Shown here piece by piece: positions 1,730-41,374 of a stretch of DNA of 56,468 nucleotides. The stretch is from Bilabrum cf. latius (Eukaryota). The position numbers and the translations under genes were made by a program. Location: contig OZ237750.1 in the NCBI GenBank assembly GCA_965178125.1, positions 1,116,001 through 1,172,468 on the forward strand. Direction: 5' to 3'. The notes under the pieces are model-generated. The model was not told the DNA's origin, ran no database searches, and worked only from the letters and a program-made list of their open reading frames with translations. Numbering within the stretch: the stretch's first letter is position 1; each line of letters starts with the position of its first letter.

Positions 1730-3644
1730 ATGGCATATCCGAACCAAGTGAGTCTATGAGAATGCCACCTGCGACCGGATCCGGATGATCTAGTCACCCA
1801 AGCGTTTGGTCACCAGAGTTCTTTGATGAGTGCATTCGCAGCAATTTCGGGGCCGGCCGCCGCACCAGTAGTTCCACGGGGTTCCAACTAATGGACAATA
1901 CCCCGGCTACGCTACTGGACCAGGGGGGATGCCTGTAAATCAGGGCCAGTGGCAGCCAAACCCAACGGGCGCAGCATACCCTCCCTAGGCTGGAGCTTTC
2001 GGCGCCACAGCTCCGCCACAGCAAATCGGCCGGGCTGGTTAGCACTATCCTGGATCTACAGGGTATGCGTAGACGCCTGGATTGTACATGGGTAGGCCTG
2101 GAATGTAGCCAGGGGTGGCCTAGCCCCCCATGGGAACTGGAATGCCACCGGCGCGCCCGCCGTTCGCACCGCAGCAGGCAATTGCGCCCGCTCCTGGCGC
2201 GGGCCACCCCAGTCAGTCGTAGCCAACCAGTTCTATCCCCGCCATTGGTAGGCGTGACAGTGGGTTGGGCGCAGACAGCGACGATGAGGACAGTGCTGCC
2301 GCTGCCGCGAGCGAGAACGAGTATTTGCTCACGGTTTGCTCGCCTCTGACGTCCCATTCGGCGTGTGAGGTAGCATTACGGCACCTTGGTTGCGGATCTT
2401 CCGATGCGCCGCGCCTGATGGGTCCCGATGGCAGCCCAGAGCGCAGCGTGCAGGACGATTTCGGCCGCGGCGTGGCCTCGTACTTCTTCTACGTCGCCTT
2501 CCTCGGGGCAATCAACTGCGTGCTCGCACTGCCGGCAGTGGCCCAGCTGGCAGCTGCGCGGTCCGACGGTAACGTAGATCTCGAGGCAGAAGTCTACAGC
2601 GGGGTAGGCCGCACCTTTGCTGGCGCCCTCGAGCCTGGGGCCATGGGCGGCTGGGTCGCGTCCACGGTGGTCATGCTGCTCGTGTCCGTGGCGGCTGGGC
2701 CCGCGTACTTCTTCATGAACCGGCAGTACGAGTCTTTCTACTCCGGCAAGGACCGCGCAGAGGAGGTCCCCGCCGGCATGGACGAGATCGAGGAGCACAG
2801 GGGGTACACGCACGCAGAGAGGGCCTGGCGCAGGACCCTGTCGGTGGTGGCCACCGCTACCGTTGTGGTGGTGCAGGGGCTGCTCATGTGGCTGCTCAAT
2901 CGGGCGCTTGTCCGAGTGTCGAGCGATAGTGTGACGGCGGTGGCGCTGTCTGGCATGCTGGCGGTGTCAAACATCGTTTGGAAGCAGGTGGTGCGCTTCC
3001 TGACCAGCCTCGAGGTGCACGCCCGCAGGACGGCCGAGATCGAGTGGGACAGCGGGAAGGTGTTCGCCGTGAGGATCTGCAACCTAATGTCCCTGTATTT
3101 AGTGAAGAGCCTAACGGGCCAGGACGCTGTGTTGGAGGAGGGGTGCGATGATCTGGTGGAGACGGACTGTAGGTGCCCGCTGAGCAGCATGGCCTACCAG
3201 TTCATGTGGCTCATCATCATGGAGCTCACTATCAACAACGCGATAGAGATTGCCATCCCCTACGCCATGGTCTGGGCCAACCAGGCCTTTGGCCTGACAG
3301 ATGCGCAAGGCACTAACGCCGCGCGCCAGCCCTTCGACCTAACGGAGGAGTACACTGCGCTGCTCTATCGACAGAGCGTCGTGTACCTCGGGGTTTCCGT
3401 GTTCCCTCTCATGCCAGTGCTGGCTGCAGCTGCCTCCTTCCTGGAGTTCTGGGTGGACAAATACAAGCTGACGGCCCTCAGCATCAAGCCCAAGGCACCG
3501 CCGGAGCCTGTGCGAGCCGAACTCATCCTGGGGGCGCACCTCATTATAGCAGCCGTGGCAGCCCTGTCGTACCCCAACGGCACTATCTTGATCCTCTCTG
3601 GGTTCGCAGGTATTGACATCAATTGCGCATTCTTTGCGTCTTGA
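1730..3644 (+). CDS. Transmembrane channel-like (TMC family) protein; exons about 1730-1747 and 1842-3644
   Basis: FGRGVASYFFYVAFLGAIN and FDLTEEYTALLYRQSVVYLGVSVFPLMP resemble TMC motifs, and there are many TM segments. Intron GTGAGT..TTCGCAG at 1748-1841. The P/G/Q-rich N-terminus contains 7 in-frame TAG; ends TGA. Confidence 0.75.
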
Positions 3645-3702
3645 CGCGGCCAAGGCAAGCGATACAGCTGAATCGCCTCCAACTTGAAGGTGCTGAAAGG
3701 GT

Positions 3703-4165
3703 TTACCCCCTGGATCCCTCAAGGAATGCCCAGTTGACTTGAACTGTTTGTCCCATTAGCTTCTCTCCGTTCAGATCCTGTACTGCCTTCTCTGCATCGC
3801 TTTTGTTCGCCATTTCAACAATTGCATGTCCTTTCGCAAAGCCCGTCTGCCTGTCGAGAAGGAAGTGTATTTCGGTCGGATCTGCCACATCTGCGAAGAA
3901 CTCCATCAAGTCATCTTCTAGCGCTTCTTCATGCAGCCCGGTTACAAACAAGCACCATCCTTCCACAGCTGCGGGGCAAGGCTCAAGAAAATCTGCTATT
4001 GAACATTCTACGATCCATTCAAAGGATATTCACATTGGCTGTCAATGGTTTAGTTAAAGCTACTGTATTTTGACTCTACGAGCACAAAACGGCAGCTGCT
4101 TCGCCCTCACACTTCAATGGAACATCACTGCTAGCAGATCTTGCAGAAGCTTCTGCAGCTCCCAT
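3703..4165 (-). CDS. RBM8A: RNA-binding protein 8A / Y14 (exon junction complex); exons 4165-4111 and 3968-3703
   Basis: The spliced product PLKSVEGWCLFVTGLHEEA...LDRQTGFAKGHAIVE...VQVNWAF matches the Y14 RRM. Intron GTGAGG..CCGCAG; ends TAA. Confidence 0.92.
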
Positions 4166-4285
4166 TTTTTTAGTTGCCAAGGGTGCTTGTCAAAATATCT
4201 GGTATTTTGCAGGAAAACTACACCGCTCAATAATGGTGTTGACGAAAAATCACAGGCGTACATTTGGGTTGTTTGCAGGCAAGTC

Positions 4286-7200
4286 ATGGGAAACACCGTG
4301 CCGAAAGGTCAAATAATCGATTAGCGTCCCCATGAATCTGCCGGAGATCTTATCAAAGGGATCCAAATACGGAACTGCGTTGCCGACAACAGATTCACCT
4401 CAGCGTATAGGTGCACTGCTCCGGACGGAGGGGAGGCTTTACTGAAGGTATATAGCAAGCGGAGCGGTAGTTCAGTACCAAATAGAAATGAGGAGGAAGA
4501 AACCGCCATAGTGCAGACATCAAACGCCATGCGCAAGCTGAGGCGAGCGGTTGCACCTTTGCTCCATCCTCATCTCCTGCCGTATGCCAGGATCGAGAAT
4601 TCGAGCAAGCCGCACTCTGTGATGGTTACGAGATAGTGGGTACACACAACACTCAGAGATAGACTGCAGAAAAAGCAAGGTCTGCTGGAAATTGAGACAA
4701 GATTTCTGCTGTACCAGATGCTTGCGGCTCTGCACGAGGCCCACTCGAATGGGATCACGCACGGTGACGTTAAGCCAGAGAACGTGCTCATAACGTCGTA
4801 TGGGTGGGTGTTTATTGCAGATTGGGCGCTACATAAGCCAGTGGAGCTGCAGGCCGATAATCCAGCTTCGTTTTACTATTTTTTCGCTCCTCAAGCTAGC
4901 CCGTCGTGTCGACTCGCCCCAGAGCGTCTCGTTGAGAATCCTCGGCGCGGTGCTGCGGGCTCTATATCATCGACACCTTTACACGGTGCCCGCAAATCAT
5001 TTGGTGGGAGCACGGCTGACGACGGCACCGCGAGCGAGAGCTCCAAGGGTCGTACCGCCAGCGCCCTGCACAGCGAGGACGGGTAGGGTGCAGATACTGA
5101 GGGAACGTCGCTCCTTGATGCGGCGCACCTAGTGTCTGTTGCTGCTTCGCAAGACTTGCACAAGCTAAGGGAGCTCGACGAGGCACTTGGGCTGGACCCG
5201 TCCAGGGGCTCCTCCCCGGCAGGTCATCGGCCGAGTGGGTCCGAGCTGCGGTGCAAGGCAGACATTTTTGCCATGGGCTGTACCGCGGCGGAGCTGCTTG
5301 GTGGTCCGCATGCATTCGGCGGCATGGATCTGCCCGCCATGCTGCAGTATAGAAGAGGCCACGTCCCGGGTGCACTCGTGGATGTGCTGCGAGCCGTTCC
5401 ACCCGGTGCAAGGGCCGAGCCCGCGGTAGAGGGGGCACCAAAACCAGGCGAAGGGTCTAGCGCAAGCTAGCAAGGAGGTATTAGTTCAAGCTCCGGTCTC
5501 CAGCCTGTAGTGGGCCCTGGTCGGTCTCCTCGCCAGCTGGTGGCCCACATGCTGAGGAGGCTGCCGGAGTCCAGAGCGACTGCAGCCGAATATCTTGGTG
5601 CTTGCACGGGGCCTGGCCGACTGTTTCCGCCTGCTTTTAGGGATGTCTTGCATCCATTGCTGGGCAGTGCAGTGTCCCACCCCGGTCTGCAAGACCCTGA
5701 TGCGAGGGTGTTGCTGCTGGCGAGGGCCTTCCCACGATTGCTGTTGGAGCTAGCGGAGGCGGTGGACGAGGCAGGACAAGTCGCCATTGCCGGGATTTTG
5801 CAGGACCAGGATGAAGAGCTCGACCGGCAGGGCAGGAGCTCGCTGCGGCAGCAAGGGGGGATGAGCTGGGCACCGCCCGAGGATAGCGAGTGGTGGTGGG
5901 ACGTGGATGTGCATCACGATTGGGCTAACGGCGCAGCGGACAGCTCAGAAGTCAAGCAACACGATCAGACCAAAGGCCCTTTGGATGCTTGGGTTGGACC
6001 AGAGCGCACACAGGAGGTCCCTTTGAGTGTAGGTCTTGGTCGGACAGGTACTGCTATCGATTTGTACATTCTGCGGCCGGTGCATGAGGCCAACCTGGCT
6101 GCGCGGCACAACATGCGACAGGTCAACGGCAGTGGTTCCGATCAGAGCTTGAGTACGGTATCAGTACCGCAATCCCCAAGTACCGTTTCCACTAGCGATC
6201 TTCTTGCCATGGTTGATGCCGAGTTGGCCGCGGGTATTGGTTCACAAGAGGATTGCTGCGAGCTTGTGGATGTTGCGGTGCCTAGCGGATCGTCGCCAGC
6301 CGAGCCCTCTGACATCGAGGGCACAGAGACTAGGACAAAGTGCTAGTTGAATGGCGAAATGCTGGCTCTTGTGTTGCCTCTGCTTACCTCAAGTATGCGG
6401 CACGTGTCTTCCGCAAGGTTGCGATTACTGTCCGTCATGCTGCTTGCCAGGCTGAGCTGCGTGCCCGGGATCTCGCAGACCTTCTTGTTGCGGTCGTCGT
6501 TGCCGTATCTAGTTGAAGCCGCTAGAGATGAGTCGGCGATGGTAAGGACGCACGCCCTGGCAGCGGTTGCCTGCTTGTCTCTCACGCTCCAATCTAACGC
6601 GCAGGAGGACACGTATGTTGTACCCCACTATGTACTGGAAGGCGTGGCGCACTGCCAGGATGACCCGTGCACCGTAGTGCGAGAGTGTTATGCTGCCGCC
6701 CGCCCGATGCTCTTGCTTGCGGCGAGGGCTATCGCTGAGTCTGCGGCCTCAGGATCGGCTGCAGCTGCGCTCTCTTCTGTAGAAGAGACAGGGGAGAGTA
6801 TATCCGCTGGACGGCAATCGCTAGCCCCAGACTTAGACGTACAGCACATGATGCGGTCTCTCGCCATATAGAATGAGGATTGGCTGCTTCGTCTTGGCAT
6901 CATGCAGCCAGCTCAGCTCGTCAGACCTTCGAGCGCGTTTTCTGCCCTGATGCATGAAGCGCCCCTCCCAGCCCACAAGGAGGCTATATTGGCACTGTGG
7001 TGCGTGCTGGAAGCATCAAATGCGCAGGAGAGGGAAAATGAAATGCCAGAGCGAGCGAGAAGCAGAAGAACTACGAGCGAACGTTCTTGGGCCGACTACA
7101 TCGAAGAGGCCGCTGGCCGTTCGTGCACAGACTCGCACTCTCTGCATTGGATGTACCACACGGTCGGCTCTTCCAAAATCCCACTTTTTTCTGGGAGATT

Positions 7201-10200
7201 AGGGTGGCACGCCGTCTACCCTCGCCCTAGCCTCTTAGCGGATGAGTTTGCAACAAATCATGGAACGCACTTGCGGCATGTTTCGTAGGCGCGGGGTGCT
7301 CTCGTCAGGAACCTGCCAACTCTCGCTGCTGCTGTGGGATCTGATTTCGCGGAGCATCGGGTATTTGGCACAATTATGAAGACATTCAAAGATAAAGACC
7401 CGGGCATATCGTAGAGTGTGTCGTTACAAGCGGTACCAATGGCTCGGCTGTTGGGTCCGAAGCAGACTTGTGGAGACTTGCTAGAGGAGCTAGCCAGAGA
7501 CGTTGGCGCGGCAACTGAATTCCAGAGCGGGGCAGCTCTAGATGCCATTGCAGAGTTGGTTCAACAGGGATTACTAGGGAATTAGCCGTTTTATCACTCC
7601 CGTGGAAGCAGGCCATCCGAGAGAGCGAAGTCGATGGATGTCGATCGGCGAGACCATGCAGGGGGTGCGACCGCGATGCAGTGGCTACAATTGACCGCGT
7701 AGCGGTTGCCCGCGGCGTTGATCGCAGACATCCCCAGGTTTTGCTTTTTGATGCTGCACCCGAGCAACTGGGTACGAAATCCAGCCTCTCGGCTCCTTGC
7801 TGCGATGGCTGTTTCTCTTGGATGGCCTGAGGCGCAAGCTCACATGGAGGAGCCGCTTGCAGTAGCTGCAGGTGCGGGCGATGCAACGAACGCACCATTG
7901 CAGTCCGCCTGGGGATATTTAAGGCAGTCTTTGCGTGTGATTGAGCAGCAGGATGCTAGCTTGCAAGCAGCTGGGACTCGAGCGGCAGTTGCCGGTTTGT
8001 CTGGGCTGCTACTGAAGATAGTGAGGGCTACTGCGGCTCGTCGTGCAGTGAGGGCGGCGTTGGCACGGCTATGCGATGCTAAGCGCTCTGTGGAAGAACA
8101 GGCGAGAGATGATGTACTTGAGTAGCTGGATGAAGAGACGGCACAAAGCGTACCACAGCGAGCGGAAGACGGACCTCTCGACTTCAGCTCCAGCGCTGAG
8201 AGCGATTCTCATGAGCAGCCACGACGCAGTGCACCATTGAGTACACTGGCCCTCAGCAAATCTCGCCAGCCTCCGAAGTCCTCTGCAGCTGAAGTGCGAA
8301 CGCTGGCTTTACTGCTCCACCCTCAGCTGCAGACTGTATCTGAAGCTGTCTGCAGGGACGCAGAGCTGCTTGACTAGCTCGTGTTTGCGGCCCACAGTGA
8401 TGCTGCGGAGGAAGAGCTACAGGCGAGGGTTCGAGGGGCCCTCAGGGAAGCCGGGGCAAATCTCTCTGAACAAGAGGTGGCCCGAGTGGCGTTCGAGTCC
8501 TTCAAGCCGCGACTTGCAGCACGGCAGTACCCGTACACACCGCAGGACCTTGCGAGTCTACTCCCGCTGGCGGCTCATGTCCCTTCCACGAGCTTCGTGT
8601 CGCTGCACGACAGGCCACCTGAAAACGCAAAGGCACTAAACTCATCAAGTACCGTATATACTGCTAAGCAACTGTCAGCGAAATTTGCGTATGGTGCTCC
8701 CCTGGCTGCATGTATTGAGAAATGGTGCCGCGCTGCAAGCTCAGGTGCTTCAGACCTACCCATCCCTGGGCAGAGGACAAGCCTGGCGATTAGGTCGCCA
8801 TTGTCAATTACTATTCGGTGTAATCGTTCTGTCGTGCGACTGGCACGCTCTGAGCTGGACGGTACTGTATCTGACTCTGCCATGCTGGAACAGCAACTCT
8901 ACATGCGTGCTGGCCGTCGGTTGCGCCGGTTGGATCTCGGACTTGGCCTGTTCAATCTAGCAGCGTTGGCACGGGTTGGAGATAGTACACCGGCTGAGGT
9001 GTTCCGTCGCACAATCTTGCAGCGTTTATCGCGGTCAAGAGGACATGCAGGCTCAATCGCCGGCACGGCTCTGTCATCGGACGCAGCAGACGGACAGGCG
9101 AAAGTGTTTACGTCCCAAGCCGCTAGGAACCTTGACCGTTCGCTCGATGAGCTGAGCGACGATGAAAGCGAAGACAGCGAATCGAAGGCTGAGTCTGACA
9201 TGAGGTTATATGGCAGTACGCGCAGGTCGCAGTGGAGGTGTGGAGGAGGGGAACGCCGGGACCCCCTGGATGCCAGCACAAGGTACATGCTAGCTGTGAG
9301 CACCGCAATCGCACGGGGCGTCGCAGCCGAGGCCAGTGGCTTTGGAAAGCCGGACACTGTGATTGCAAGTGCAGCGGAGACCGCCATATCGCTTACTCCT
9401 GCGCATAGAGCCTGGGCGTTCGTGCAGTTTGCACAACGAGGCGGCAACCCAGTGGATTTTGCTGGAAGCCCCGCCAGGACTATGGCTCAGCTTGGAGTCA
9501 AATCAAGCGCTGGCCTGCTCGACTCGGAGAGTGCACTAAAAGCAACGCTAGGGGCAGCGAACGAGATCAGAAGAAGCGAATCCGAGACTCGGAAGCCGTC
9601 CCCGTTGCACCCCAGCGCAGGATGCACCGTGCCCCTGCCACCCCTCGCATCCAGCGGAGGCCCAGCCGGACTGGTTGTTGCTGCACTGGCTGATACGTGC
9701 CGTGTGATTGCCGCAGCAGACGGCGCAGACACCAACCAGATAGAGCTGGGGCGAACTGCGTTGCTAGATGATGCTGCCTGCCGGTCTGCTGCAGGTGCTG
9801 CCATTCGAGTGCTGCGAGACCTGAACTGCGAGCCCGGGACACTGCCCGGCCTGCTGCCACTCACAAAGGCCGGACTGTCGGTCCGCAACACCGCCCGGCA
9901 TGGACAGCGATCTTCTGTGGACAAGAGGTAGAAGGGGGATAGTGCCGGCGTCATGATCGCAGGTAGTGCTGTGGCTGTCGGCGGATACTTTGGAGATGAT
10001 AGCCAAGTGTCTACCCCTCGACCTTCTGTCGGCACCCCGCGGTTCGGTGCGGGATCTCGTGGTGATCCAAACGCGCGATTTAACGAATCTAGCAGGGGTT
10101 TCCCAAGTGGGATTTTGTCTGCCTCCTCAAGATCATAGCTTGCTCACGTGCATCGGAACCGGGAGTCCGTGCTTGCACCAGTGTCTTAGAGAGTGTTACG

Positions 10201-13200
10201 TAGTGAGTCTGGCAAGACAGTGCTGCATCATCCCCTATGGAGTGTTCTCGGGCAAGTAGGCGGCTAGGCACACTCTATTGAGGGTGTTTGCGGTCTGGAG
10301 GGCCTTGCATATAGGTCCAAAGGTCGTGTAGTTGACTTCACCTCCCCAGCCAGCCTGGCATCGCTTCGCCGAGTCGTTGCTGCGCTTGATGTGCCTGGCC
10401 TTGGCCCAAACTTTGGTAGCCTCAGTGCTCGTGCTGTGGCCGCCCACGCTATCGCTCACCCTGACTTGGGGGCATCAAGTATGCTTGGGTCTGGATCCGC
10501 CCGGCGAGCTGCCCAGATGTCTGGTCTCGCAGCTGGACAAACCATGCTCGTATCTGGACTGGCCGAACAGCCATCGCCGTTTAGTTCGGGGGCAGTGTTG
10601 CTGTCCAGAGCCATATCAGGGAGGCTGCGATCTGCAGCCTGCGGGCTCGCCATTCTGCACGAAGTCCAACGCTCCTCAGCTGGAGCATAGCAGAACGCCT
10701 CATCGCCAGCAGCGGGACTAGAGGCTTCCAAATCCGTCACATCGCCCGGAGTGGCCGCTGCATTTGCCAGTTTGAAGCGCAGTGCTGCCGTGATCGCTGG
10801 CGATGAGCTACAGTCTGCGCTGCAGGCTGAAGGAGTTGATCAGATTCCATCTGGCGCTCAGGATGGCAGTGCTGTTCCAGTGTACTAGGATGGCGACGGC
10901 ACCGGTAGGGGTTAGAGCAGTGCGCCGAGGGCCGCCGATCTCGCCATACTGGGAGGAGCAGGAGCAGCAGTTCTGCAGGAAGAGGCGAAATCCGGATGGT
11001 CAAGTACGCACTCGCACGCAATCGGAGTGTCGTCGCCGATGGCCATCCTGCACAACATGGTGCATTCGAACTTCGACAAGAGTGGTTTGATGCGCGATAT
11101 TGATGAGATTGCCCTGGCTCACCGTTCCATCGGGGCCAGCCTGCACCCGGTTAGTGCAACCGATGCTGGTATTCAGGATGCCAGTCGCGGTGGATTCACG
11201 GTATTTGAATCGGGGCTGGAAACTGCGCGATATCATGTCGCAGGCCTGTCAAGGTGGCCATCTCGAAGTTGTCCGCTGGATGAGATTGCAGAGCTTGTCA
11301 ACAGCAACGCTGGCATCTAGCACCCTGATGTGGCCGACACAATGCTTCACCTTCCCACTGCTGCTCCCTCAAGCTCAATGGTGTTGGCTCGTGCTAGGTC
11401 ACAAGGTCTTGCTGGGATCAACTTAGCGATGGTAGGTAGTGTTGGAGGTGTGAGCGGTCTCGCTGCAACCCGGCTGGCGGCTACCATGGCTGGTGTGCAG
11501 CATCTGCAGGCCCTTGTCAACGCAGTCATGACGCCGCAGGCAGCTGCTAGTAGTGCTGTTGAGTTATAGCGGTCTGCCATGGACTCACAAGCGTTTGAAG
11601 AGGGGGCGGCGGCTGCTGTTCATTTGCCACCCATTGGCTCCGTTGTCTCTGTGCTGTAGGGGTATGCCTCCGCTTGCACTGCTGCTGTTAGGGCCCAGCA
11701 AAGAATTTCAAGCGCCCTAGACGGATAGTTGGCTCGATCCGCAAGTAGTCTTGGCATAGAAGGATCCCGCCTGTCCGTTCACCAGCTTGCCGATCTGGTA
11801 CAACGGAGATCTGACTCGAACCGGGAGCGAGAGGGGGAAGTATCTCCTTACTTGGCGGTCATGCCGGTGCAATCTTCTGCATAGCCTTTCGTCGAGACTG
11901 TAAGCAACATTCGGGGCTCTTCAACGGGATCGAGACGGCCAATTCTGGCGGCTGCTGGGATCGCAAGCAATTCGCTCCTGCCGCCGTACATGGCCGTGGC
12001 ATACAATGCTGCTGGAGTCAGCCTAAATTCATGTGCTGCCGCTGCATCGGTGTCATTCGCAGCCAGGACAATGCGCAGATTGCTGTAGAACGGATACAGC
12101 TATCCTGTTGCCAGCCGAACTGCTGGGGCGATCAGTATCGCCTCCGCACAAGGCTGGTGCGGAGCTGCCGCTTTCCTTTCTCCAGACAGAGCTGGGCGAA
12201 GACAGCTCGAGCCAAGCGCTGCTGAAAGTGGTGCAATTGATGATGCGCGCGCCGCAATCGCACAAACGTGGGTAACGTCAGTAGCTGACGGGCCTGCTGG
12301 TCCTACCGTGGGGCGTCGAGCTACCGAGGCGATCTTGCATCGCGTATTCGAGCTCATGGCACATGCAGGGACCTGGAGCAGCGCGACTGCCTGCTCACCG
12401 TGCGGGATTCCATCGGAAGCAATCCTGGACTTGGTGCCATCTGCCGTTTCCAATGTTCTGCCTCAATTTACATTTGGAGGCCTGCCGCTGCTTCAGCAGA
12501 TAGACGTGCCGGCCATCGCCTATCGACCCGGGATGCTGCAGTCCACCTTCGGGGTGGACAAGCTGCACCAACAGCCGTCTGTGGCTGCCCCAGCTGCCAG
12601 CTTGACAGGCCCTGAATCTCGCAAGAAGATGATCGCTTATTCGGTGTCGCAGCCTAGCTCAACACTCGGAGTACCTGCAGATGTTGGGGACGGCCGTGGC
12701 TCCGCAGCACCCGGGGTCGAGTCATTTGCTGAACTTGACTCTTTTGGGACAGTCCCCAGCAGTGGTAGTTCGGGGCCTGATGCACCATTCCAAACACAAG
12801 CGGCAGATGAAGCTGCCCAGGCAAAGCTAGATCGGCGCGGCCCAATTGGCATGAGACCGGCAGCCGCAGCCATTATGAAGGCCGCCCAGGCGGAGCAGGT
12901 GCAGGAGGAGCTGGACGAGTTCAAGAGGTTCCCATTCGGGTCGCGCCCGAGAGGAGTCGTTCTAGGGCGCTTGCTTGCGCATGCTGGCGTTATCCGCGGG
13001 GTTTGCACTTCAGAGGATGGATCTTTTGCCGTGTCTGCCGGCGAGGATGGCACTGCATGCGTGTGGGATGCAGTAGGGCTCGCTGCTCTCCGCGGGTTCG
13101 CCGGCCTGCCCCCTCGCGCGCAAGTGTCAATCGAGCGAGCAGCGCGCCACCCACTCGCCCGGTACACGCCTGCTTGGTCATTAGCCGATGCTTCTGGGAA

Positions 13201-14989
13201 GACTAGGGAGTCTGCGCGGCCTCAGTTTACGTGCTTGTCAGCCTGCTAGGGGTCGCCATCCGTCGTCCTCGGCGACTCTATGGGCGGGATTCATGTGCTG
13301 CGCGTGGACTGTGATGCGTATGCAACTCACTTGCTCGAGGCGAAGCGACGAGAATCCCGATCCACCGGAGAACAGAGCACGTAGGCATTGGATCCGATGC
13401 TCCGGGGGCTGATTGGTTCTGGACTGCTCGGTCCTTCGGACTCCTTTTCGCGTGGGTGCACACTGGAGGCCACCCTGTCCCATCCGCCTGGGCCCATGGC
13501 CAAAGGCTCGAACCCGGCGCAAGCGGTGCTGCGGTGCGATCCTGAGGCCCACGTACCATACCCAAAAGCGTCCGCATCAGCAGTGAAAGCCTGCATCCAA
13601 GTTGTGCTTGCCATGCGCGTTGCTGGCGAGGGCCCCGTCGTGTTCGTGCATCACGTATCTAGGCCGAATGTGTCGGCGGTGCTGTATGGGACGGCGGCCG
13701 GGGTGATCCGGTTATATTGTTTTCGCCGAGGAGGGCTTCTGTGGCAGCTGCAAGTGCCGCGATCATACGGCCGGTTGTCGCAAGCTGCGGTTGTGGAAGG
13801 GTCGGAAGGTGCTGCTTGTGTGGTCGGCAGCTCGTGTGGGGTGTTGCTTGCAATTGATCTTCGGCTTGGGTGCATATGCAAAGCGATGCGACTGTTTCGA
13901 CCGGCGCAGTCAGCCTCGGGGACCGGCTCAATTTGCTCGATAGCCTCTGTTCGCCCGTTTCTGTCCGTTGGGTTGCAGGAGGCTGGTCCATCCGGCAGCA
14001 TGAGCACCACGCTGTTCGCCCAGGTTGGTGTGTCAGCATGCGGCCGCAACGAGCAGGATCGCGTGGACGAGCTAGTCACGTTGAATATGGAATCCATGCG
14101 AGTAATTCGGGGATTCAGGCATTCCAGCGGCAGGTACGCACCTCTGGTTGCGACAGCGCTACCGACTAATTCGCTGGGACTCGCCTCTATTCAGACTAAT
14201 CCTGCACGCTCTGTGGCGAGCAAAGCTGGCTTTGAACATGCAAGCGCTGGGATTGGCGGGTACACTTAGGTGCTTTGGCCGCTAGCAGAACCTTCTCAAA
14301 CCGCGAGCCCTGCTCATCGACATCCTGGCGTGGGTATTAGGCCGGCAGCGTGCATGTCGATGCGCGGTCCAGGTGCTGCGATTCCTCGTCTGCCAGACCT
14401 GCTGAGAGCGTCTACTGCTCGGGTACAAAGCAACAGCTCCCATTTCGCCCAGAACGATGCTGTTAGTGGCGCCGCAAGTGCTCAGATCCGCTGCGATTCA
14501 GCCCGTGAGGAGGTGATGGAGGCCCATGAGAAGGAGTGGCTTTTCTGCACTGCAGGTCTGCCAGCGTGGAGTCTCGTTGCGGGCTCTGACGGACAGGTCG
14601 TCTGCGTTGACACGGTGGTTCCTGGGCGTTCGTTCGTGGTCTTCGGACGCCAAGAATCAGGGCGTCGTAAGAGTTTCACCAAGGTTAGACAGAAGCACCT
14701 GCTATTGAGACCGGTGCCGCCTCTGTCAATTACGTAGCAGTAGGCTACGCCAGGGTGGCACGACGACTCTTACACGTCAGGCAGCATTGAGTGCAGCTAC
14801 GATGTGGTGGTGCACGAGGACTCTGCCGCACCACCGGGGCCCGGATCGGACGCAAGGAGTGGTGGTCTCGATACAGCAGGCATGGCTGAGAGAGCAGCCG
14901 TCGGAGTCTCATGCATGGCATGGGCCATCATCCCCGAACAGGTTCTTCTTGTCGGTGGGACAGATGGGACGATACAGGTGCTTCGGTAA
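4286..14989 (+). CDS. VPS15: VPS15/PIK3R4 (class III PI3K regulatory pseudokinase, HEAT repeats, WD40); one reading frame of up to 3567 codons with about 30 in-frame TAG
   Basis: MGN myristoylation-type start; kinase motif HGDVKPENVLITSYGWVFIADWALHKP; HEAT region LPYLV..ARDESAMVR and LHPSNWVR; WD40 start RPRGVVLGRLLAH..SAGEDGTACVWD; C-terminal GTDGTIQVLR-TAA. All ORF fragments share one frame and are separated only by TAG. Confidence 0.9.
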
Positions 14990-15052
14990 CTGCGTCAAAA
15001 CGTACCCACATATTAGTGAATCGATTTTAATCGCATGCTTGCCAATTAGATG

Positions 15053-17004
15053 TCAATGTCCGTGCTCTTTGTCTACCCTACCCCTGCTGCGAGGCCCGGT
15101 CTCAAGAGCCGCAGCCCCGCCTGTGGCTGGGCCGGCCGTGCCAGCATCTGTGCCGGATGCGTGCCACCCTCTGCGGTTGCCAGCGTTTCCCTGCGGCGAT
15201 TCTGCCAGGGCCGCAGCATAGCTGCCAATGTGTGCGTCGCCAAGTCCCCCGCCCCCTGTGCTCGCGCCCACTCGAGCCGCTGTCGGCAGGCCATCCACGC
15301 CGGCAGCACCTGCTTCTGCAATTGCATTACGTAGTCGTGCAGCCGCGGCAGCTCGCTGCCTGACTCTCTCCACGATACTGCGCATGCTAGCGACGACATC
15401 TCCGCTGCCCTTGTCCATGGCACGCCGATATACCTCCAGGAATTCGCGACGGGCCACCTCCTTTGCAGGCTACTTGCCGGCCGCTCGGCTGCCATCCTCC
15501 TCCCCGCCGGCCGCTTCTTCCCCATGCGCCGAGAGAGAGACCCCTTGGGCCTTGGCCGTCTCCACGGCCCACTCGACGTAGTCGTCCTCGGTGATGTGTC
15601 CCTCGCCTGAGCCCAGCGACAGCAGGTACCTCTCGTCTCCGTCCATCGTCTCAGGTGCAGAGGCCTCGGAGGGGCGGGCGCCGACTGCCTCTTCGCCCCC
15701 GTCACTCTTGCCGTCTGTGGCCGAGCTTTCCTTCGACTGCAAGGCCGAGTCTTCGGCCAGCACTCCAGGAGTCTTCGCACCAGTCACGGTGGCGCCGCCA
15801 TCAACGCGGTGCACAAACAGCTCCAGTCGGAAGTGCTCATCAAACGCCTTGTGCTGCCGATCTTTGACGGCGTGATCGCATGCCCATTTGGAAAAGCTCA
15901 GGTAGTTCCGCTGGATGAATGCGGTATGGAACCAGAGGGAGGCCATCCGCTCGTCTTCCCCCACGTCCTGGTCCCAGAGCTCCAGCCTCATAGTGCCTTG
16001 GAGGAGGATTCCGTGTTTGCGGAGGTCGATAGTGCGGACACCTTCCTCGGTCGTGAAGTGCGGGATCTTGCGCTCGTGCTTCCGCTGGTCGTAAATCTCC
16101 AGGCCGTAGTACCGGTTGTTCGCGGTGAAGATTCTCAGGAACGGGTCACAACCGGTAAACGGATAATCAAAAGCAGGGGCAGTGCACTGCAAGAAATACA
16201 GAAAATAAATTAGGCTGTCGGTTAGCAGCGGGGAGAGAGTAATGGAGCCAGAAGAGACACTCAAAGATAGTGCAACAGAGCCAATCTCACGACCCGGACA
16301 GCAAGCAGTTGGTATGTCTTGGCGAACGAAGCTGCGATGTTCAGTGAACTGTCAAAAGGCGATCGCGTGCGGCGTTTAAAAAGACCACCAGATGCACTCA
16401 AGTTCGGATTTCCCCTGAGGATCTTACGACTGGTCAGATCCCGGACGCCCATGCGCAGGACTTGCTCGTAGTAGTGCACGAATCGAATTTGACTGGGAAT
16501 AGTCACGCCTTTTCCATCTAATGTTCTTCTTGATCCAAAGAAATGCAATGCTTCTGCGGCAGTTCTACAAGCACCCGAGTGCAAGAGATAGCAGGCGATT
16601 GCGGTGCCAGTCCTCCCTTTGCCAGCCTTGCAATGAACAGCAACCACATTGTGTGGATTCTAAAGCAGGAACTCATCAACACACAAACAAAACGCCCTAA
16701 TTAGCCTCAGTGGGGGCGCGTTGTGGTCGGCCCACGGGATTCGCTCGTTCGGGAAGCCACGCTCGATGGCTGCGGAGTATCCCTTTTCCGAGCACAGATT
16801 AATCACCAAGAAATGAGACGGGTGCCTCATATCGAAGAAGCGTTGCACGTCTTCGGCAGCGTTTCTATAGGAAGCTTCGAACCCTTCCGAAGGAAAGCCC
16901 ATGGCGATAATTCGCGGAGTAATGTACGCAAGGTCAAGGTCAAAGTGTCCTGGGTGAACAAATCGTTTCTTTTTTTTGCTTACTAGGCCTCGTACAAAAT
17001 CCAT
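15053..17004 (-). CDS. PTEN: PTEN-family phosphoinositide phosphatase with C2 domain; intron about 16187-16290
   Basis: [34 protein letters not shown], catalytic [24 protein letters not shown] and C2 WFHTAFI. In-frame TAG at 16660-16662 lies 7 codons before the catalytic HCKAGKGR, with another at 15470-15472; ends TGA. Confidence 0.92.
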
Positions 17005-17190: not shown

Positions 17191-18654
17191 TCACATGCGC
17201 AAAATACCCTGTACAACGGGGTGCAGCAACATGTCTGCAACGAAGTGGTGAATCGGCAGCCGAGACGGGGCCTCTTCGACAGCGAGGTGCTGCGGCTCCG
17301 ATTCACTGCGGCGCCTCCACACTGACAACCACCGACTAGATGGCTACGCTTCTGCCCAAACTGGAACACTATCTGTACCAGCGCTAGTATCAGCCTTCAC
17401 ACCTCCATGGCTGTGTGCTGCTGCACATGCAGGTTCCCCTGCACCTGCGCCTGCACCTGCACCTGCACCTGCACCTGCACCTGCACCTGCACCTGCACCT
17501 GCACCTGCACCTGCACCTGCACCTGCACCTGCTCCTGCTCCAGCACCTGCACCTACACTTCCACGCGCATATGCACCAGAAGCAGCGGTAGGCCGTCGCA
17601 CAGACTTGGCATTTACCCACACAGTTGCAAGCACCTCAGCATGCTGGGCTGCCCCGGGCACTGGTGCCAAAGTGACTGCACCAGCCCCCAGAGGAACTAT
17701 TGGGGTGCCGCTCGTTTCGGTTGACGGAACCGCGCTGGGGTCTGCTGCTGCCGCGCTGGGGTCTGCTGCTGCCACGCTGGGGTCTGCTGCTGCCACGCTG
17801 GGGTCAGCTGCTGCCACGCTGGGGTCTGCTGCTGCCGCGCTGGGGTCTGCTGCTGCCGCGCTGGGGTCTGCTGCTGCCGCACTTGAGTGGCTACTATCGC
17901 TGCTATGAGTAAAAATATCGCGAGATGATGCATCTGGCAGGTATGGGCAGGCCTCTGCATCTACGACGTACAGCACCATCTTGGACTCGCGGAAGTAGAC
18001 AGCCTAGGCCGATGGGCGGCGTGCTGCAGCGCGCATATGGTGAGCACCAGTGCACACTGGTCCAGCGGTTTTTTTCATAGGCCTAGGAGAGCACTATTCC
18101 TTCAGCCATCCCGCTAGCTTGCCTCGCTTTCCGGCGTGCAGCAGATGGCTCCCTGTCTCCTCGTCCCACTCGCGGGCAGCAGTGGCCCAAGGGCCTTCAT
18201 CATCAGCATCGCGCTTGCCTGCAGGAATCGACAGCGCAGCCCATAGCGACTTGCTGCGCTTGGATCGGCTCAGAGCTGCGAATTCTTTCTCCGGGATCGG
18301 ACTCTACAACGGCCCACACTTAGCCGCCCAGTGCCAGCTTGGTGCACGTGTCAAACCGCCAGGACCAACTGTAGATATGCTGCCAGGTGACTGAGTGACG
18401 TCCATTCCGCGGGCACGGCATTTGTGCACGCTCTTTAGTGAGTCTCTGTGCACATTTCCCCACTATCGAAGCTCCCACCCCAACAGCACTTGAGCGCTTG
18501 TCCTCGTCAACAATATACCGGCTGCCCGATACGCTTTCTAGTGATCATCATCAATATGATTCAGTTTTTGTGTTCTCGGCGAGTATAGCGCAGCTTTAAT
18601 TCTCGTCCCGTAGAATCGTCCCCGCTGCGCAACGCGATGGTGGAGGAAACACAT
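17191..18654 (-). CDS. Nudix hydrolase with repeat-expanded insertions (5' end uncertain)
   Basis: With TAG read through, the frame gives YRAAGILLTRTSAQVLLGWE...LSIPAGKRDADDEGPWATAAREWDEETG, a Nudix box. It continues into ORF 17344..17979 and ends at TGA 17191. The Nudix domain is absent from the supplied ORF track. Confidence 0.75.
17440..17552. repeat. (GCACCT)n hexamer microsatellite encoding poly-(GA) in the Nudix gene
   Basis: About 18 near-perfect GCACCT units are directly visible. Confidence 0.95.
17732..17880. repeat. 21-bp tandem repeat (about 7 copies) encoding AAADPS[A/V] in the Nudix gene
   Basis: The unit (G/A)CGCTGGGGTCTGCTGCTGCC is repeated in tandem. Confidence 0.95.
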
Positions 18655-19075
18655 CTTGTGAGTATCGCAGGAATCCACATTGAAGCTTCTGCAAGTACGA
18701 GCGGAATCACACCCTCATACTTGTAATCAATTGGTGTGCAAGCTCCGGCGAGCCTAGTTGCCAAAGCTAAGACTCCCTGGTTGACCGCAGACATGCTATC
18801 TCTCCATAGACGAGTTTTGCTTGTTCCAAGACGTCGTCAAGGGACTGTTTGTCTGGCATAACGGTTTCAAAAACGAAAACTTTATCCATTTGGTGTCGCA
18901 AGACCTGCAAGTATGAGTTTGGGCTGACTGCATTGGGCGCAGTTCCGGTTCCAGGTTCAACACGCCTGGCGGTGGCAGTTCATTTGGTTGGTTCTTTACC
19001 GTCAGGTTGAAGTTGGTACTTTCCAGGAAACTTACATGCATCGTGGTACGATGACTGAGAAGAAAGCGAGCCGAA

Positions 19076-37686: not shown

Positions 37687-40600
37687 TCATTTTCGCTACT
37701 TTCTCTTCGATCTCGGCTTAGATAGGGGCTTCACGCTGCCACGATTTTCGGCACGCCCCAGAGTGAGTCCCCCAGTCCGCCGCTTGGATCGCGCTCTGTC
37801 GGCCTACTCTTGCGCCTTAGAGGCATCTTCCTGGGCGGCCTGCTCATCTGCCACGCTAACCCATTCCCGCCTACCTTTGAGCTTGGCAGACGCAGGTCTC
37901 TTTCGCAAGGACGGTCGAGCAGCAGCAGCACTGGCTGCAGCGCCACCAGAGGCAGAAACCACTTGCGGGGCGCAATACGAACCTGCGTCCAGTGCAGCGT
38001 TCCACTCTGCAAACGCATGTTCTGCAGCTGCTCGTTTTTGCGCCTCCATTCGTTTCGCAGCTCGGTCGGCTTGCCTTGCGGCTTTCCTGGCCTTGGCAGC
38101 TTCCGCCGCTTTCTACTTGCTCCAAAGCTTGAAGGCGCGCTTGGCGTCTTTCTGAGATTGCACAGCGTGTGATCTAGCAGATGCCAAGGCAGCGCCACTG
38201 TCTGCGTAAATCGACACGCCGGTTTCAGCAAGCTCCTGGCCAGATCGGAGGGACAACAGCAGCTGACGGGCTCTCTTGCCAACAGCGCGGTCCGCACCGA
38301 GAGACTCCAGGACTGGTCCCATGTGCTCAAGGGCATCAGCGACGTGCACCGGCACTGCTGCACTTCTGCGTCTAGCATCAGAACCAGCCTGTGCTTGCAG
38401 GGCAAGAACCCGTGATCGGATATTCAAGCCTCCTCGGCTGGGTCTGACAACCTTAATCCCGGAGGCAGGCACCTTTGATTCACTCAATGCACTGGAGCTT
38501 GTCGCTGCCGTACCCAGCGTATTCGCCCTCGGCACCACCGTAGTATGCACTGCTTGCTCGGACAGGTCGGACACCGCCGCTTCCAATTCCTCGAGCACGA
38601 TCCAAGCGCCTTTGCCCTTCAGCGTGGGGGTTCGTGATGGCCTAGATGTGCGTGCGCTTGCCCGCCTCTCGTCTTGCACGGCGCATTCGTGGTTAACAAA
38701 GTCCCCGAGAGTGCCTTGAATGCGCCCTTGCCTCCATGCCTCGCAGTATCTCCAAAATATGCAGCATGCAGCCAACGGGTTCGACAGCAATCGTGCTGTG
38801 TTGGATCGTACTCGAGCGGCAATCTGGTCCTTTGGAACACCGCCAAGAGATTGTCCTGGCCTTTTCTGCTGCGAAGCCCATGCAAGCGCTTCAGTAGTTG
38901 CCAATTTTGCTGCCAGATCACCTGGAATTACTTGGAAGGTGGAGCAAAGGCTTGCTACATCAGCAGCCTGCAGCCAACCTCGCTGCCATTGCAAGGACTG
39001 CCCGCCAGCCACCGCTGCCGAAGAATTCATTACAGACCCCCCCAGCGCGACACGACCGCCAGTGCCCTCCTCTTCAAGGCTGAGAGCTGCAGCAATTGCT
39101 GCTACGGCAAGAGACGGCACGGCAAGAGACGGCTGCGTGCCTGCGAGCGAAGGGGATATCCCAACGGCTGCATCCCCCCCAGCCCCCGGCAGCAGAGTAG
39201 CGGTGCGGTACACTTGCAAGCACCCTGAAGAGTCACGCAAGAGCTGCTGGATCGGAACAGGGCTTGAGCAGCTACGAAGCTCAATTGGAAGCTCTCCGTT
39301 GCAAGCCCTTTCGAGAAGCTTCTTCTACTTCTGCCTCGCTGCTTGCTACGCTCGACTCTTGTGACGGCGCCACGATGCTGTTGAAACCTGCTGCGATCCC
39401 TTCCTACGGAGTGCGGCCAACCCTTTCACAACAGCATCAACTGGCACAAACACCCTCCCAAGCCGTGCGCCTGGATGTGTGTCTTCAATGTCCTTGCCTT
39501 GAATTGCTTGCGCAACAGCAGCCCCACCCCCTAGCTCAGCCAATCGCACACAAGCAAGCTGGTACACGGATTCGGGCGCCAGTAGTGTGCTACTCGCGCT
39601 CGCATCCCGAATGCTGGCGCGAGTGCGCATTGCCTACGTTGTATAGACGTCTTGAAGGTTTGCCCGAAGCAAAGACGCCACTTGCTTGGCATCTGTCCAC
39701 TACACTGTCGAGTCAACCGGAGACCCCATGCCAGTGCGATCATGGCAATCTAGTATCCTCTTGCGCAGCTTCGCGTAGACGTCCGGGTTGCTCTGAAGCA
39801 CTGAAGACAGTGTTGACAGAATTGATGCAGCAAATCCTTTAGCATCAAAGCCCATAGCTGGGGCCGATTGCTCGCCTGTCTCAGATGCTTCAGAATTAGA
39901 GATGCCACCAGAGATGATCGCCGTTGGCTCGGTCGCAACGTCAGCAGTTGCTGGGCCAGCCCCGATCTAGCCTTCAGCATCAGCGCCTTGATCTCCTCGG
40001 TGTTTACCGCCGCTGAAATCCAGGCCATGAGGTCCACCGTTGCGATCGATCACGCCAACACCAAAGTCACTGGGTTCATCAGCGCCCGCAGACTTGTTTC
40101 CCCCTTCTGCGGCACTCGAGCTGCCCTCGGCTGCAGGCGCATCAATAGCGACGGCGCCGTCCTATGAGGAAGCCTTCTCGGTGGTTGCAAGCGATGAATC
40201 GCACATGTCGACCAACAAGCATGCGTAGGGGGCAGAACTCGGCTCACAGCCTGCACCTGTGGCCGGCCCATCCAGTTGGACCCGCTCGGCATCAGCGAGC
40301 ACGCCGGACTCCCGCAGAATTGCGAGCGTAGAGGGGTCCTGCCCGCCTCCTACCAGCTTCATCCAGCCACCTGCGTGCAGCCCGAGTTGCCCATGACGCT
40401 TTCTTGTTCCGGCTGCTCCCGCTTCACCCTACCGGATTGAGACTTGTGCTCCTCTAGCAGCTTCCGTGCGAGGGTCCAGCCCGAGCTGCGAGATGACATG
40501 TAGTACATCCTGTTGTTGGTGTTCTGCGCCAGCTTCACGCGCACCCTCGTCCTCAAGCCATCTGGTCAGGTCACTTTCGCCCAGCACACCGTCTGCATCC

Positions 40601-41374
40601 TAATCCCAACGGAAGAAGGCCACCAGGCTAGCAAGCAGGCCTGCCGCCCCGCCCAAGTCCCATGGCACCAGCTCGGACGCTGCAAGTGCACCAGAGTCGC
40701 CCGTCTGCTTCGATGGAAGTGCAAGCTACATGCTGTGCACAGCTGCCTGCACGAGCCAAGCAGGTGTATCACCAGGCAGCAGCTTACACGACTGGCAATC
40801 ACCGCTTTCGTGCTGCACGAGTCCATCGTGCGTCCGCATGGCTTCCCAATCAGCTTGCATCTCCGGATACAAGAAGGCTGGAGGTCCCACGTAAATACCC
40901 TCGCAACTTGTGCAGGACACCTAGGCAGTTGTTAAAGCAAGTATGACGCAATTCGTGCACTCGGTGACTTGAATAATAGGCCTGCGATGCATGACAAGTC
41001 TAGAGACAACCGTCGCGTCAGTTCATGTATGCAATCAGTCAGCGCTGTAATTGCCACAAACGAACTCACGAGGATATCAAGAGCACACACCCTGTGCAAC
41101 CTGAGACCCTGGCGAGCTTGGAAGACCGGCTCGCGACCAGGCATACGTTGCATCTGGAAATGTTGACTTGCTGCACCAAATTTCCACTTGTGTTGGATAC
41201 GTGAGCATATGCGAAACCTTCTATTTCGGAAGACCTGCGGATCGTGGAGTCCAGGGCAGCACACTGATCGTGGAGTCCAGGGCATGCACCCGACAGCTTC
41301 GAGCGGCTCAAGCAATCGCATGGAGAGCCTCACGCGATGGAGCCGTTTTCGATGAAAATCCTAGAGTATTCCAT
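37687..41374 (-). CDS. Large protein with a TBCC/RP2-like beta-helix N-terminus and an EF-hand-like motif; probably two 5' introns
   Basis: One frame from about 40980 to 37687 is interrupted only by TAG. Cys-rich repeats ARVSGCTGCVLLI and IIQVTECTNCVILAL are TBCC/CARP-like, and FFRWD*DADGVLGESDL is EF-hand-like. The 5' exon structure is inferred. Confidence 0.55.

Follow-up and report, generated by a model that had tools for sequence, protein, structure and literature searches.

Genes and Features at the Chromosome End

The window, the whole stretch of 56,468 nucleotides that was analysed, is a gene-dense 56-kb chromosome arm with 58% GC and terminal TTAGGG arrays. A VPS15/PIK3R4-like gene occupies positions 4286-14989 of the plus strand as a single exon of 3567 codons, 30 of which are in-frame TAG, and ends on a TAA at 14987-14989. 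Its product matched the Pfam families Pkinase and WD40 as well as human PIK3R4 and yeast Vps15 in the PDB, and an unspliced RNA-type contig spanning 4273-15043 covers the open reading frame (ORF). The convergent PTEN gene has its stop at 15053-15055, 63 nt from that of VPS15.

Two spliced genes on the minus strand also end on TAA. RBM8A/Y14 (3703-4190; Pfam RRM_1, E 6e-17) consists of exon 1 (approximately 4165-4111), an intron (3969-4110) and exon 2 (3968-3706), followed by the TAA at 3705-3703. Contigs from the runs X6, X7 and X8 contain the splice joint 3968/4111 (CT..AC), and joining the exons brings back the SVEGW motif in frame. The second gene (969-1570) has 169 codons, with its ATG at 1570, an intron at 1115-1206 and the TAA at 971-969. 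Spliced contigs in X6 and X8 carry an ORF that continues across its joint, and exon 1 shows 98% and 64% protein identity to relatives; a Pfam search of this gene returned no family, and its last exon is defined solely by the spliced contigs and the open frame.

The other genes discussed here end on TGA. The main exon of an AP-complex mu subunit (30537-31859, minus strand; Pfam Adap_comp_sub, E 2e-70) has its TGA at 30537-30539 and an in-frame TAG at 30672-30674, and its alignment with mouse AP-1 mu reaches the last residues. The gene for the lariat debranching enzyme DBR1, identified by Pfam and PDB matches (32133-34106, minus strand), has its TGA at 32133-32135, directly after the motif DPNEIGLSDED. 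Also on the minus strand are a gene of 1101 codons and no named function with 13 in-frame TAG codons (37687-40992) and one of 2319 codons with 37 in-frame TAG and neither TAA nor TGA in frame (41637-48596), for which a Pfam search found no family. A COX6A-like exon (cytochrome c oxidase subunit VIa; Pfam PF02046, E 7e-7) lies at 22526-22789 on the plus strand. Positions 52968-56468 contain telomere-type (TTAGGG)n arrays, located with Tandem Repeats Finder at 52968-53328, 54440-54769 and 55881-56468; the stretches between these hold two 155-bp repeat arrays that are identical. Two ORFs with 63 and 93 unusual TAG codons are produced by the (TTAGGG)n arrays and are non-coding.

In-Frame TAG and the Absence of In-Frame TAA

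Across 21 genes of the window, comprising 15,226 in-frame codons, TAG occurs 144 times in frame, whereas TAA and TGA do not occur at all. Of the 23 coding segments counted, 20 contain TAG, which makes up about 1% of all codons and about 20% of the glutamine codons; when it is read through, ORFs of 3643, 2322, 1111 and 1046 codons result. Position-specific base composition predicts approximately 105 TAA and 107 TGA in frame, against none observed of either, and in the +1 and +2 off-frames of the same genes TAA is found 68 and 74 times, respectively. Within the TGA-delimited ORFs of real genes, TAA was encountered only upstream of starts and 10 codons before the end of the VPS15 ORF. An earlier note on this DNA had described UAA and UAG as decoupled and had reported no TAA in the coding frames; both statements agree with these counts and with the genes that end on TAA, and the TAG/TAA split in this GC-rich protist chromosome end is confirmed as a real feature.

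The same pattern is found in a relative, represented by the metagenome contig L001, which is syntenic with the window and whose AP-mu shares 91% amino acid identity with it. L001 has 41 in-frame TAG and no TAA in 3159 codons, at a CAA/CAG ratio of 0.84. The sample as a whole thus comprises one 56-kb window and 12 kb of a relative, with 26 gene ends, five of them TAA.

Termination at UGA and UAA

The 21 gene ends in the window use TGA 18 times, TAA three times and TAG never. This bears out the number of ends, the dominance of TGA, the absence of TAG ends and the positions of the RBM8A (3703-3705, minus strand) and VPS15 (14987-14989) stops as given in the earlier note, but not its statement that these two genes were the only ones ending on TAA, since the gene with its stop at 969-971 is a third. 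The VPS15 product terminates in ...DGTIQVLR, and the note had placed its TAA where orthologues end. Among 40 orthologue ends, 27 have the strict terminal motif ...DG.(I/V/L).(V/L..)W., eight more show the same strand by eye (about 35 of 40 together) and five look truncated. In RBM8A, Drosophila and human Y14 (PDB) align to residues 1-87 and none aligns past the TAA. In L001, DBR1 has the same C-terminal motif followed by five residues and then TAA, whereas the window copy has TGA directly after the motif; likewise, the L001 orthologue of the 37687-40992 gene ends on TAA and the window copy on TGA. UAA is a working stop codon, as indicated by the three genes that it ends, the position of the VPS15 end at the orthologous residue and DBR1 of L001.

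It could be argued that UAG is ambiguous, being read as glutamine inside genes and as a stop near some 3' ends, a context dependence of the Condylostoma/Blastocrithidia type. With 21 genes the sample is compatible with this; in one gene a TAG precedes the TGA by three codons, and the VPS15 TAA is followed by eight sense codons, an in-frame TAG and a TGA (14987-15019), so that the 3' UTR contains a TAG-TGA tandem. Against this, each ORF reaches a TGA or TAA, and TAG is needed as a stop in none of the 21 genes, a small sample, in which AP-mu, DBR1 and VPS15 have conserved C-termini and none of these three ends at TAG. Dual use was also absent from the other UAG-only lineages described so far (PMC11687900). 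We consider such ambiguity improbable. Codes in which all stop codons also have a sense meaning (Condylostoma, Blastocrithidia, karyorelicts) do not fit, as neither TGA nor TAA is found in frame.

Alternatively, UAA may be unassigned or strongly avoided, with UGA as the only efficient terminator and with stalling or read-through at TAA. The absence of TAA from coding frames cannot by itself separate a stop codon from an unassigned one, and TAA is used at just three of 21 ends, or five of 26 when the relative is included. However, TAA makes up 31% of TAA plus TGA in non-coding DNA, and compared with this expectation the shares of 3/21 (P = 0.07) and 5/26 (P = 0.14) are compatible with composition. 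The rarity of TAA stops therefore needs no special cause, because their share fits the base composition of a GC-rich genome. TAA and TGA replace each other at orthologous ends of the two species, as is expected for interchangeable stops, VPS15 is an essential trafficking gene and ends on TAA at a conserved terminus, and no close back-up TGA follows the TAA stops: the next in-frame TGA is found after 10, 28 and 41 codons in the window and after 58 and 81 codons in L001. An unassigned UAA seems slightly less probable still than an ambiguous UAG.

Under the UAR=Gln code (table 6), UAA and UAG would both encode glutamine and UGA would be the sole stop; TAA would be rare through GC-richness, and at the three TAA ends translation would continue as far as the next TGA. 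This is the commonest type of stop reassignment (as stated in PMC5304391), and of the three triplets TAA is the rarest everywhere in the window. Nevertheless, the A/G ratios of other two-fold pairs predict far more than the zero TAA observed: about 78 if TAA were used relative to TAG at the CAA/CAG ratio of 0.55 (probability of none approximately 1e-34) and about 29 at the TTA/TTG ratio of 0.20 (approximately 3e-13). The relative, with its CAA/CAG ratio of 0.84, likewise lacks in-frame TAA, and no in-frame UAA was found at glutamine positions. TAA in a coding frame occurs only where a gene ends, and the one in VPS15 coincides exactly with the last orthologous residue; the chance that a single sense TAA would fall within the last 10 of 3577 codons is 0.003. 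The TGA that the earlier note had placed 10 codons downstream of this TAA is indeed the tenth codon after it (15017-15019). Read-through would append 10 to 81 unconserved residues. The 76 pooled codons after TAA have a coding score of -0.03 log2 units per codon and coding sequence has a mean of 0.16 (sd 0.13, in 26-codon chunks), which is a weak contrast, and the extension of gene2 past its TAA scores 0.14 and is coding-like. Taken together, it is very unlikely that UAA encodes glutamine here.

Glutamine as the Meaning of UAG

The best single datum for TAG as a glutamine codon is the in-frame TAG at 4634-4636 (plus strand), residue 117 of VPS15, in the motif R-TAG-W. It aligns to the Q of 'lfrQyvr' in human PIK3R4, and in 39 orthologues this column contains Q 34 times, P three times, and E and A once each; the adjoining R is invariant (39/39). 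Conserved columns usable in this way are few and come from one window. Cross-species alignment provides a second line of evidence. Non-TAG partners of TAG are CAG or CAA in 16 of 55 cases, and no other amino acid exceeds six (Ser and Arg), although Gln, with a background share of 3.8%, is a much rarer residue than Ser, Arg and Leu. The binomial probability of this number of glutamine partners is approximately 2e-10, as computed with n = 56 for the 55 actual cases. In four further columns of the alignment, which enter the count once from either side, both species have TAG. In addition, a protein fragment of 91% identity has Q at the position of a TAG in the window, and in the relative L024 a TAG takes the place of Q in 'sqlQvkyl', the counterpart of 'sgiQvryl' in mouse AP-1 mu.

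A sense reading of UAG as some other residue, be it Leu (the case in rhizarian exLh and TARA ciliates), Glu, Tyr, Ser or a pyrrolysine-like one, is hardly credible. Codes with UAG=Leu or UAG=Ser that keep UAA as a stop exist (among those described in PMC11687900), and in AP-mu of the window two TAG codons stand opposite Y and K of the mouse AP-1 mu protein, but the K-aligned codon is a CAR glutamine codon in the close relative, and the VPS15 column and the cross-species partners both favour Gln. The AP-mu TAG at 30672-30674 matches a CAR glutamine codon in L024. A nuclear variant resembling table 16 (UAG=Leu) was rejected, as Leu is the partner in 5 of 55 cases, which does not exceed its background share, and is absent from the VPS15 column.

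The reading of UAG as sense with UAA and UGA as stops, which was the core of the earlier note, is supported by the in-frame counts, the conserved columns, the orthologous C-termini and the related species. Judged from these sequence comparisons, the nuclear code is very probably one with UAG=Gln and only UAA and UGA as stops (table 15), shared across the clade, in which UGA outnumbers UAA as a stop through GC-richness. We regard the code as a property of the clade because the related species has it as well.

Decoding of UAG

A tRNA with anticodon UUA reads both UAA and UAG by wobble, and one with anticodon CUA reads UAG only. The reassignment could be explained by a tRNA-Gln with anticodon CUA, for which a mutated copy of tRNA-Gln(CUG) would be the simplest source and which would decode UAG but not UAA, together with an eRF1 in which recognition of UAG has been lost or weakened and recognition of UAA and UGA kept. 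Established knowledge would lead one to expect this combination of a CUA tRNA and an eRF1 that does not act on UAG. UAG-only decoding requires the anticodon CUA and changes in eRF1 have precedent (as discussed in PMC5304391), and the same argument was made there for Iotanema and rhizarian exLh (Panek et al., 2017; PMC5304391). No tRNA genes were found in the window, L001 or L024, and no eRF1 gene in the window.

Comparison With Other Variant Codes and Placement of the Organism

UAA and UAG nearly always change meaning together, and UAG-only cases are few. The note had called the specificity implied here unusual, which is fair; it is not unprecedented, as UAG-only reassignment is documented in several lineages (among those treated in PMC11687900). 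The code itself is already known as NCBI table 15, with UAG alone reassigned to Gln, and the organism is a further member. The combination of UAG=Gln with UAA and UGA stops has been described for the fornicate Iotanema spirale and for three ciliates, Protocruzia tuzeti, Hartmannula sinica and Trochilia petrani (PMC5304391; PMC11687900). These lineages and the window are alike in having UAG at conserved glutamine columns and neither UAA nor UGA in frame; none of the 21 genes here needs UAG as a stop, and the mechanism proposed for them, a tRNA-Gln with anticodon CUA and an altered eRF1, may apply here too. They differ in the predominant stop, which is UAA in Iotanema (according to PMC5304391) and UGA here (18/21); in two table 15 ciliates, UAA makes up 93.5-100% of C-terminal protein alignments (as given in PMC11687900).

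Compared with table 6 codes, the window is similar in that a stop is captured by Gln and UGA is the main or sole stop, but table 6 also assigns UAA to Gln, whereas in the window TAA is missing from the coding frames and serves to end genes. Table 6 is used by many ciliates, hexamitin diplomonads, Dasycladales and other ulvophytes, the oxymonad Streblomastix and the aphelid Amoeboaphelidium. Genomes of the latter have about 40% GC (as reported in PMC10608142), compared with 58% in the window. In the oligohymenophorean ciliate PL0344, UAA=Lys and UAG=Glu are both sense (as described in PMC10553269), whereas here UAA is a stop. UAG alone is reassigned, as here, to Leu in rhizarian exLh and in metagenome-assembled genomes of uncultured phyllopharyngean ciliates, and to Ser in Scotinosphaera; the amino acid differs, since Gln is favoured here over Leu.

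The COX6A-like exon indicates an aerobic mitochondrion, and the organism is therefore not a fornicate. A ciliate macronuclear origin is argued against by the TTAGGG arrays, the 56-kb gene-dense arm and the 58% GC. Public DNA and RNA-type runs exist. The closest organism-named VPS15 relatives are stramenopiles in five of seven cases, which is a weak lead. We tentatively suggest that the code may represent an independent, so far undescribed origin of UAG=Gln in a clade of aerobic, GC-rich, gene-dense protists outside the ciliates and Fornicata, possibly stramenopiles, with at least two species (about 76% nucleotide identity in AP-mu) and, in contrast to all UAG-only lineages described so far, mainly UGA as the stop.

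If the standard code were used to annotate this genome or related ones, most proteins would be truncated, and such truncation is already visible as 90%-identical fragments of 132-214 amino acids in public protein sets. Each further independent UAG-only case helps to test whether tRNA wobble forces UAA and UAG to stay coupled, and which eRF1 residues tell G from A at the third position. Lastly, a lineage that is GC-rich and stops mainly at UGA offers a compositional setting that differs from the UAA-dominated ones, and bears on the codon-capture and ambiguous-intermediate models.

Gene content and transcript support

The window is eukaryotic nuclear DNA of 58% GC, and under the standard set of stop codons its long reading frames are interrupted. 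Reading through TAG yields ORFs of 3643, 2322, 1111 and 1046 codons that contain 30, 37, 13 and 8 in-frame TAG codons, respectively, and neither TAA nor TGA. Pfam and PDB searches identified VPS15/PIK3R4 (4286-14989), RBM8A/Y14 (minus strand, stop at 3703-3705), a TMC/anoctamin-like protein, PTEN, a NUDIX protein, a triple-KH protein, SmB, COX6A, a glycosyltransferase, pterin-4a-carbinolamine dehydratase, an AP-complex mu subunit (AP-mu), DBR1, a Sel1-repeat protein and MCM10. Several large proteins of the window had no family match in these searches.

Transcript evidence was taken from contigs of four sequencing runs, of which three, all public, were guessed to be RNA, and only what the contigs bridge was used. 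Contigs of the three runs support five minus-strand GT..AG joints (1115-1206, 3969-4110, 16187-16290, 16332-16427 and 18625-18712), and a single unspliced contig (4273-15043), from a run guessed to be RNA, spans the whole VPS15 ORF. Contig ends near TAA codons (940, 15016 and 15043) were at first weighed as a sign of short 3' UTRs, but they were dropped, since a contig does not reveal where an RNA ends. All but 6,623 of the first 52,300 bases fall within coding segments; the overall coding share of the first 52.3 kb is about 87%. In four convergent gene pairs the stops are just 60-100 nt apart (894-971, 3642-3705, 14987-15055 and 37591-37689); their 3' UTRs must be very short or overlapping.

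Spliced contigs delimit a 41-nt micro-exon in PTEN (16291-16331) between two introns of about 100 nt. The NUDIX-like gene at 17430-17850 encodes a (Gly-Ala)n run and AAADPS-type repeats, and the contigs of a DNA-type run fragment into small pieces exactly there. With 3567 amino acids, VPS15 is about 2.5 times its usual length, and its kinase, HEAT and WD40 parts are separated by long inserts rich in Ala, Ser and Gly; unnamed VPS15 relatives of 2685-3884 amino acids occur in public assemblies. Some contigs of two public runs (X6 and X7) match VPS15 or PTEN partly and then continue into unlike sequence, always at the same six positions (5229, 5842, 10264, 12203, 13263 and 16371). These breakpoints reflect either stretches common to other sequences in those runs or chimeric contigs. 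Summed contig depth is raised over 12007-13340. One low-depth contig of a third run (X8) is one base short at 10771, inside the VPS15 ORF, which is probably a sequencing error or a strain difference.

Stop codon usage and in-frame counts

An earlier note had counted about 21 gene ends, dominated by TGA, with TAA only in RBM8A and VPS15 and no TAG. We found 21 ends, 18 with TGA, three with TAA and none with TAG, so the total, the dominance of TGA and the absence of TAG stood, and a third TAA end had been missed. The two TAA stops named there were recovered at 3703-3705 (RBM8A, minus strand) and 14987-14989 (VPS15). As the note had it, TGA is the 10th codon after the VPS15 TAA; it directly follows an in-frame TAG. 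The third TAA gene lies on the minus strand and is spliced, with 169 codons (ATG at 1570, intron 1115-1206, TAA at 971-969). Exon 1 shares 64% identity with a relative's protein, and the gene product matched no Pfam family. Tandem stops occur at the end of the glycosyltransferase gene (TGA-TAA, 29752-29757).

The claim that in-frame TAA is absent was borne out over 15,226 in-frame codons, which include 144 TAG, 0 TAA and 0 TGA. The same DNA read off-frame contains 68 (+1) and 74 (+2) TAA, and about 105 in-frame TAA are expected from position-specific base composition. If TAA encoded Gln and were used like TAG, the CAA/CAG ratio of 0.55 predicts about 78 (P of none ~1e-34), and even the lowest A/G ratio of any codon pair (TTA/TTG, 0.20) predicts about 29 (P ~3e-13). 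The absence is not created by how ORFs were defined, since within TGA-delimited ORFs of real genes TAA is seen only 5' of start codons and, once, 10 codons before the VPS15 TGA.

Of the TAA and TGA triplets in the window's non-coding DNA, 31% are TAA. The share of TAA among stops is not significantly lower, at 3/21 (P = 0.07) or, including the relative described below, 5/26 (P = 0.14). GC content predicts such an excess of TGA once TAG leaves the stop set, and an extra mechanism is not needed.

TAA as the end of VPS15 and RBM8A

A full HMMER search with the N-terminal 605 residues of VPS15 listed 150 relatives. We compared 40 of at least 1,242 amino acids from the top 77 rows, leaving out the long rows P0047, P0072, P0076 and P0081. 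A strict ...DG.(I/V/L).(V/L/I/A/C)(W/Y/L). motif forms the very C-terminus in 27 of the 40, and by eye eight more (P0031, P0048, P0049, P0060, P0061, P0064, P0071 and P0078) finish in the same final WD strand. The C-terminus of the window protein, ...LLVGGTDGTIQVLR-TAA, aligns in register with, among others, ...LLVSSGRDGIIKVWK. The earlier proposal that this TAA falls where orthologues end is thereby confirmed. The remaining five (P0013, P0014, P0038, P0042 and P0069) finish differently and look truncated or misassembled. The chance that a lone sense TAA would fall within the last 10 of 3577 VPS15 codons is 0.003. Against PDB, the C-terminal 754 residues retrieved generic WD repeats only, with the terminus not aligned, and a word-index search for shorter VPS15 relatives gave six matches, all of them fragments from close relatives except for two weak WD proteins.

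RBM8A resembles Drosophila and human Y14 over residues 1-87, and this similarity ends at the TAA. The 27 codons that follow do not align to Y14 and are not RG-rich, unlike the tail of a 50%-identical relative. Codon-usage likelihood discriminates weakly here: the stretches after the three TAA codons pooled to -0.03 per codon (GC3 0.45), where coding sequence averaged 0.16 (GC3 0.59), and one extension was coding-like at 0.14.

Gene ends in close relatives

With the AP-mu protein as query, a metagenome scan gave 28 loci, of which two, L001 and L024, belong to close relatives and come from a single metagenome; the other 26, 30-57% identical, were left out. L001 has 52.7% GC, its AP-mu gene shares 76% nucleotide identity with that of the window, and synteny extends over five genes. 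Its 3159 codons include 41 in-frame TAG, 0 TAA and 0 TGA.

Two genes that end with TGA in the window end with TAA in L001. DBR1 ends ...DPNEIGLSDED-TGA in the window and ...DPNEIGLSDDDACESN-TAA in L001, where the next 81 codons are free of TGA. The 1101-codon gene at 37687..40992 (minus strand) ends with TGA and its L001 orthologue with TAA, at similar tail lengths. This comparison of gene ends across species is the strongest independent evidence that TAA is a stop. With the TGA of L024 AP-mu included, the relative's ends comprise two TAA and three TGA. Past the five TAA stops the next in-frame TGA follows after 10, 28, 41, 58 and 81 codons, and a systematic back-up stop is thus absent. Another L001 gene, the orthologue of a 576-codon gene, ends with tandem TGA-TGA (L001 3002-3007).

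The meaning of TAG

Within the VPS15 kinase domain, the TAG at 4634-4636 directly follows an Arg that is invariant in 39/39 orthologues. Its own column holds Q in 34 of the 39 (P in three, E and A in one each), and human PIK3R4 also has Q. Codon-level alignments of five window/L001 orthologue pairs gave the same amino acid. The 27 aligned TAG of the window face CAG five times, CAA twice and TAG four times, the 36 of L001 face CAG five, CAA four and TAG four times, and any other codon occurs at most twice in either direction. Gln codons thus make up 16 of 55 non-TAG partners against a background of 3.8% (P ~2e-10, computed with n = 56 rather than 55); Leu codons make up five.

In AP-mu of L024, TAG occupies the Q position of 'sqlQvkyl', the counterpart of 'sgiQvryl' in mouse AP-1 mu, and a window AP-mu TAG faces a CAR codon in L024. 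The only contrary evidence to Gln is the alignment with mouse AP-1 mu, in which Y and K, at variable positions, stand opposite two window AP-mu TAG; as a test of meaning, this alignment is uninformative alone. In public protein fragments about 91% identical to window VPS15, one window TAG is matched by Q and two further ones by K and Q. One such fragment ends exactly before a window TAG, as expected where genes of a relative that shares the code are called under the standard one.

Chromosome end and comparison with known code variants

The last 4 kb (52372-56468) consist of (TTAGGG)n arrays alternating with 155-bp repeats up to the window end: a 64-bp array (8 copies), a twice-repeated unit of (TTAGGG)n and a 155-bp x 6.8 array, and terminal (TTAGGG)n. 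Both 155-bp arrays are of equal length and 100% self-matching, which may reflect recent duplication or an assembly effect.

Reassignment of UAG alone to Gln corresponds to NCBI table 15, and McGowan et al. (2024; PMC11687900) list it for Iotanema spirale, Protocruzia tuzeti, Hartmannula sinica and Trochilia petrani. The same source gives UAG = Leu for rhizarian exLh and uncultured ciliates and UAG = Ser for Scotinosphaera. Among the described UAG-only lineages the main stop is UAA, whereas it is UGA in the window. The algal parasite Amoeboaphelidium, an aphelid that has a UAR = Gln code (PMC6299283), was rejected as source on its reported GC content of about 40% (PMC10608142), against 58% here. 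In contrast to the fornicate Iotanema, the organism encodes COX6A; it is therefore aerobic and not a fornicate. Unlike ciliate macronuclear DNA, the window is a long chromosome arm, densely packed with genes and with TTAGGG arrays at its end. Among 20 top VPS15 relatives that were looked up, seven clusters bear an organism name, and five of these seven belong to stramenopiles (Phytophthora, Pythium, Aphanomyces, a chrysophyte and Chlorochromonas), with Vitrella and Closterium one each. This single-protein hint of a stramenopile affinity is a weak lead and no placement. Our search of a largely open-access literature found no report of a nuclear code with UAG = Gln beyond ciliates and fornicates.

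Proposed decoding of UAG and implications

eRF1 normally recognises all three stops via its N-domain. Decoding of UAG and not UAA would call for a tRNA with anticodon CUA, because of the C:A mismatch that UAA would create at the wobble position. The simplest origin of such a tRNA would be a mutated tRNA-Gln(CUG), and eRF1 would have ceased competing at UAG. The same tRNA/eRF1 argument was made for Iotanema and rhizarian exLh by Panek et al. (2017; PMC5304391), who also point out that eRF1 may change in subtle ways, for instance by an L69A-type substitution in exLh. ARAGORN predicted tRNA genes neither in the window nor in L001 and L024, and Rfam gave no match in the window at gathering scores.

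The proposed decoupling, with UAG as a sense codon and UAA and UGA as stops, is well supported by the in-frame counts, the TAG columns, the orthologous gene ends and the relative. It is a real feature that belongs to a clade, and it is a member of an already known type of code variant. Standard-code calls on contigs of close relatives (P0002-P0004 and P0009) have given rise, in public protein sets, to fragments that end at TAG or run into introns, so that the annotations available for this clade are truncated.
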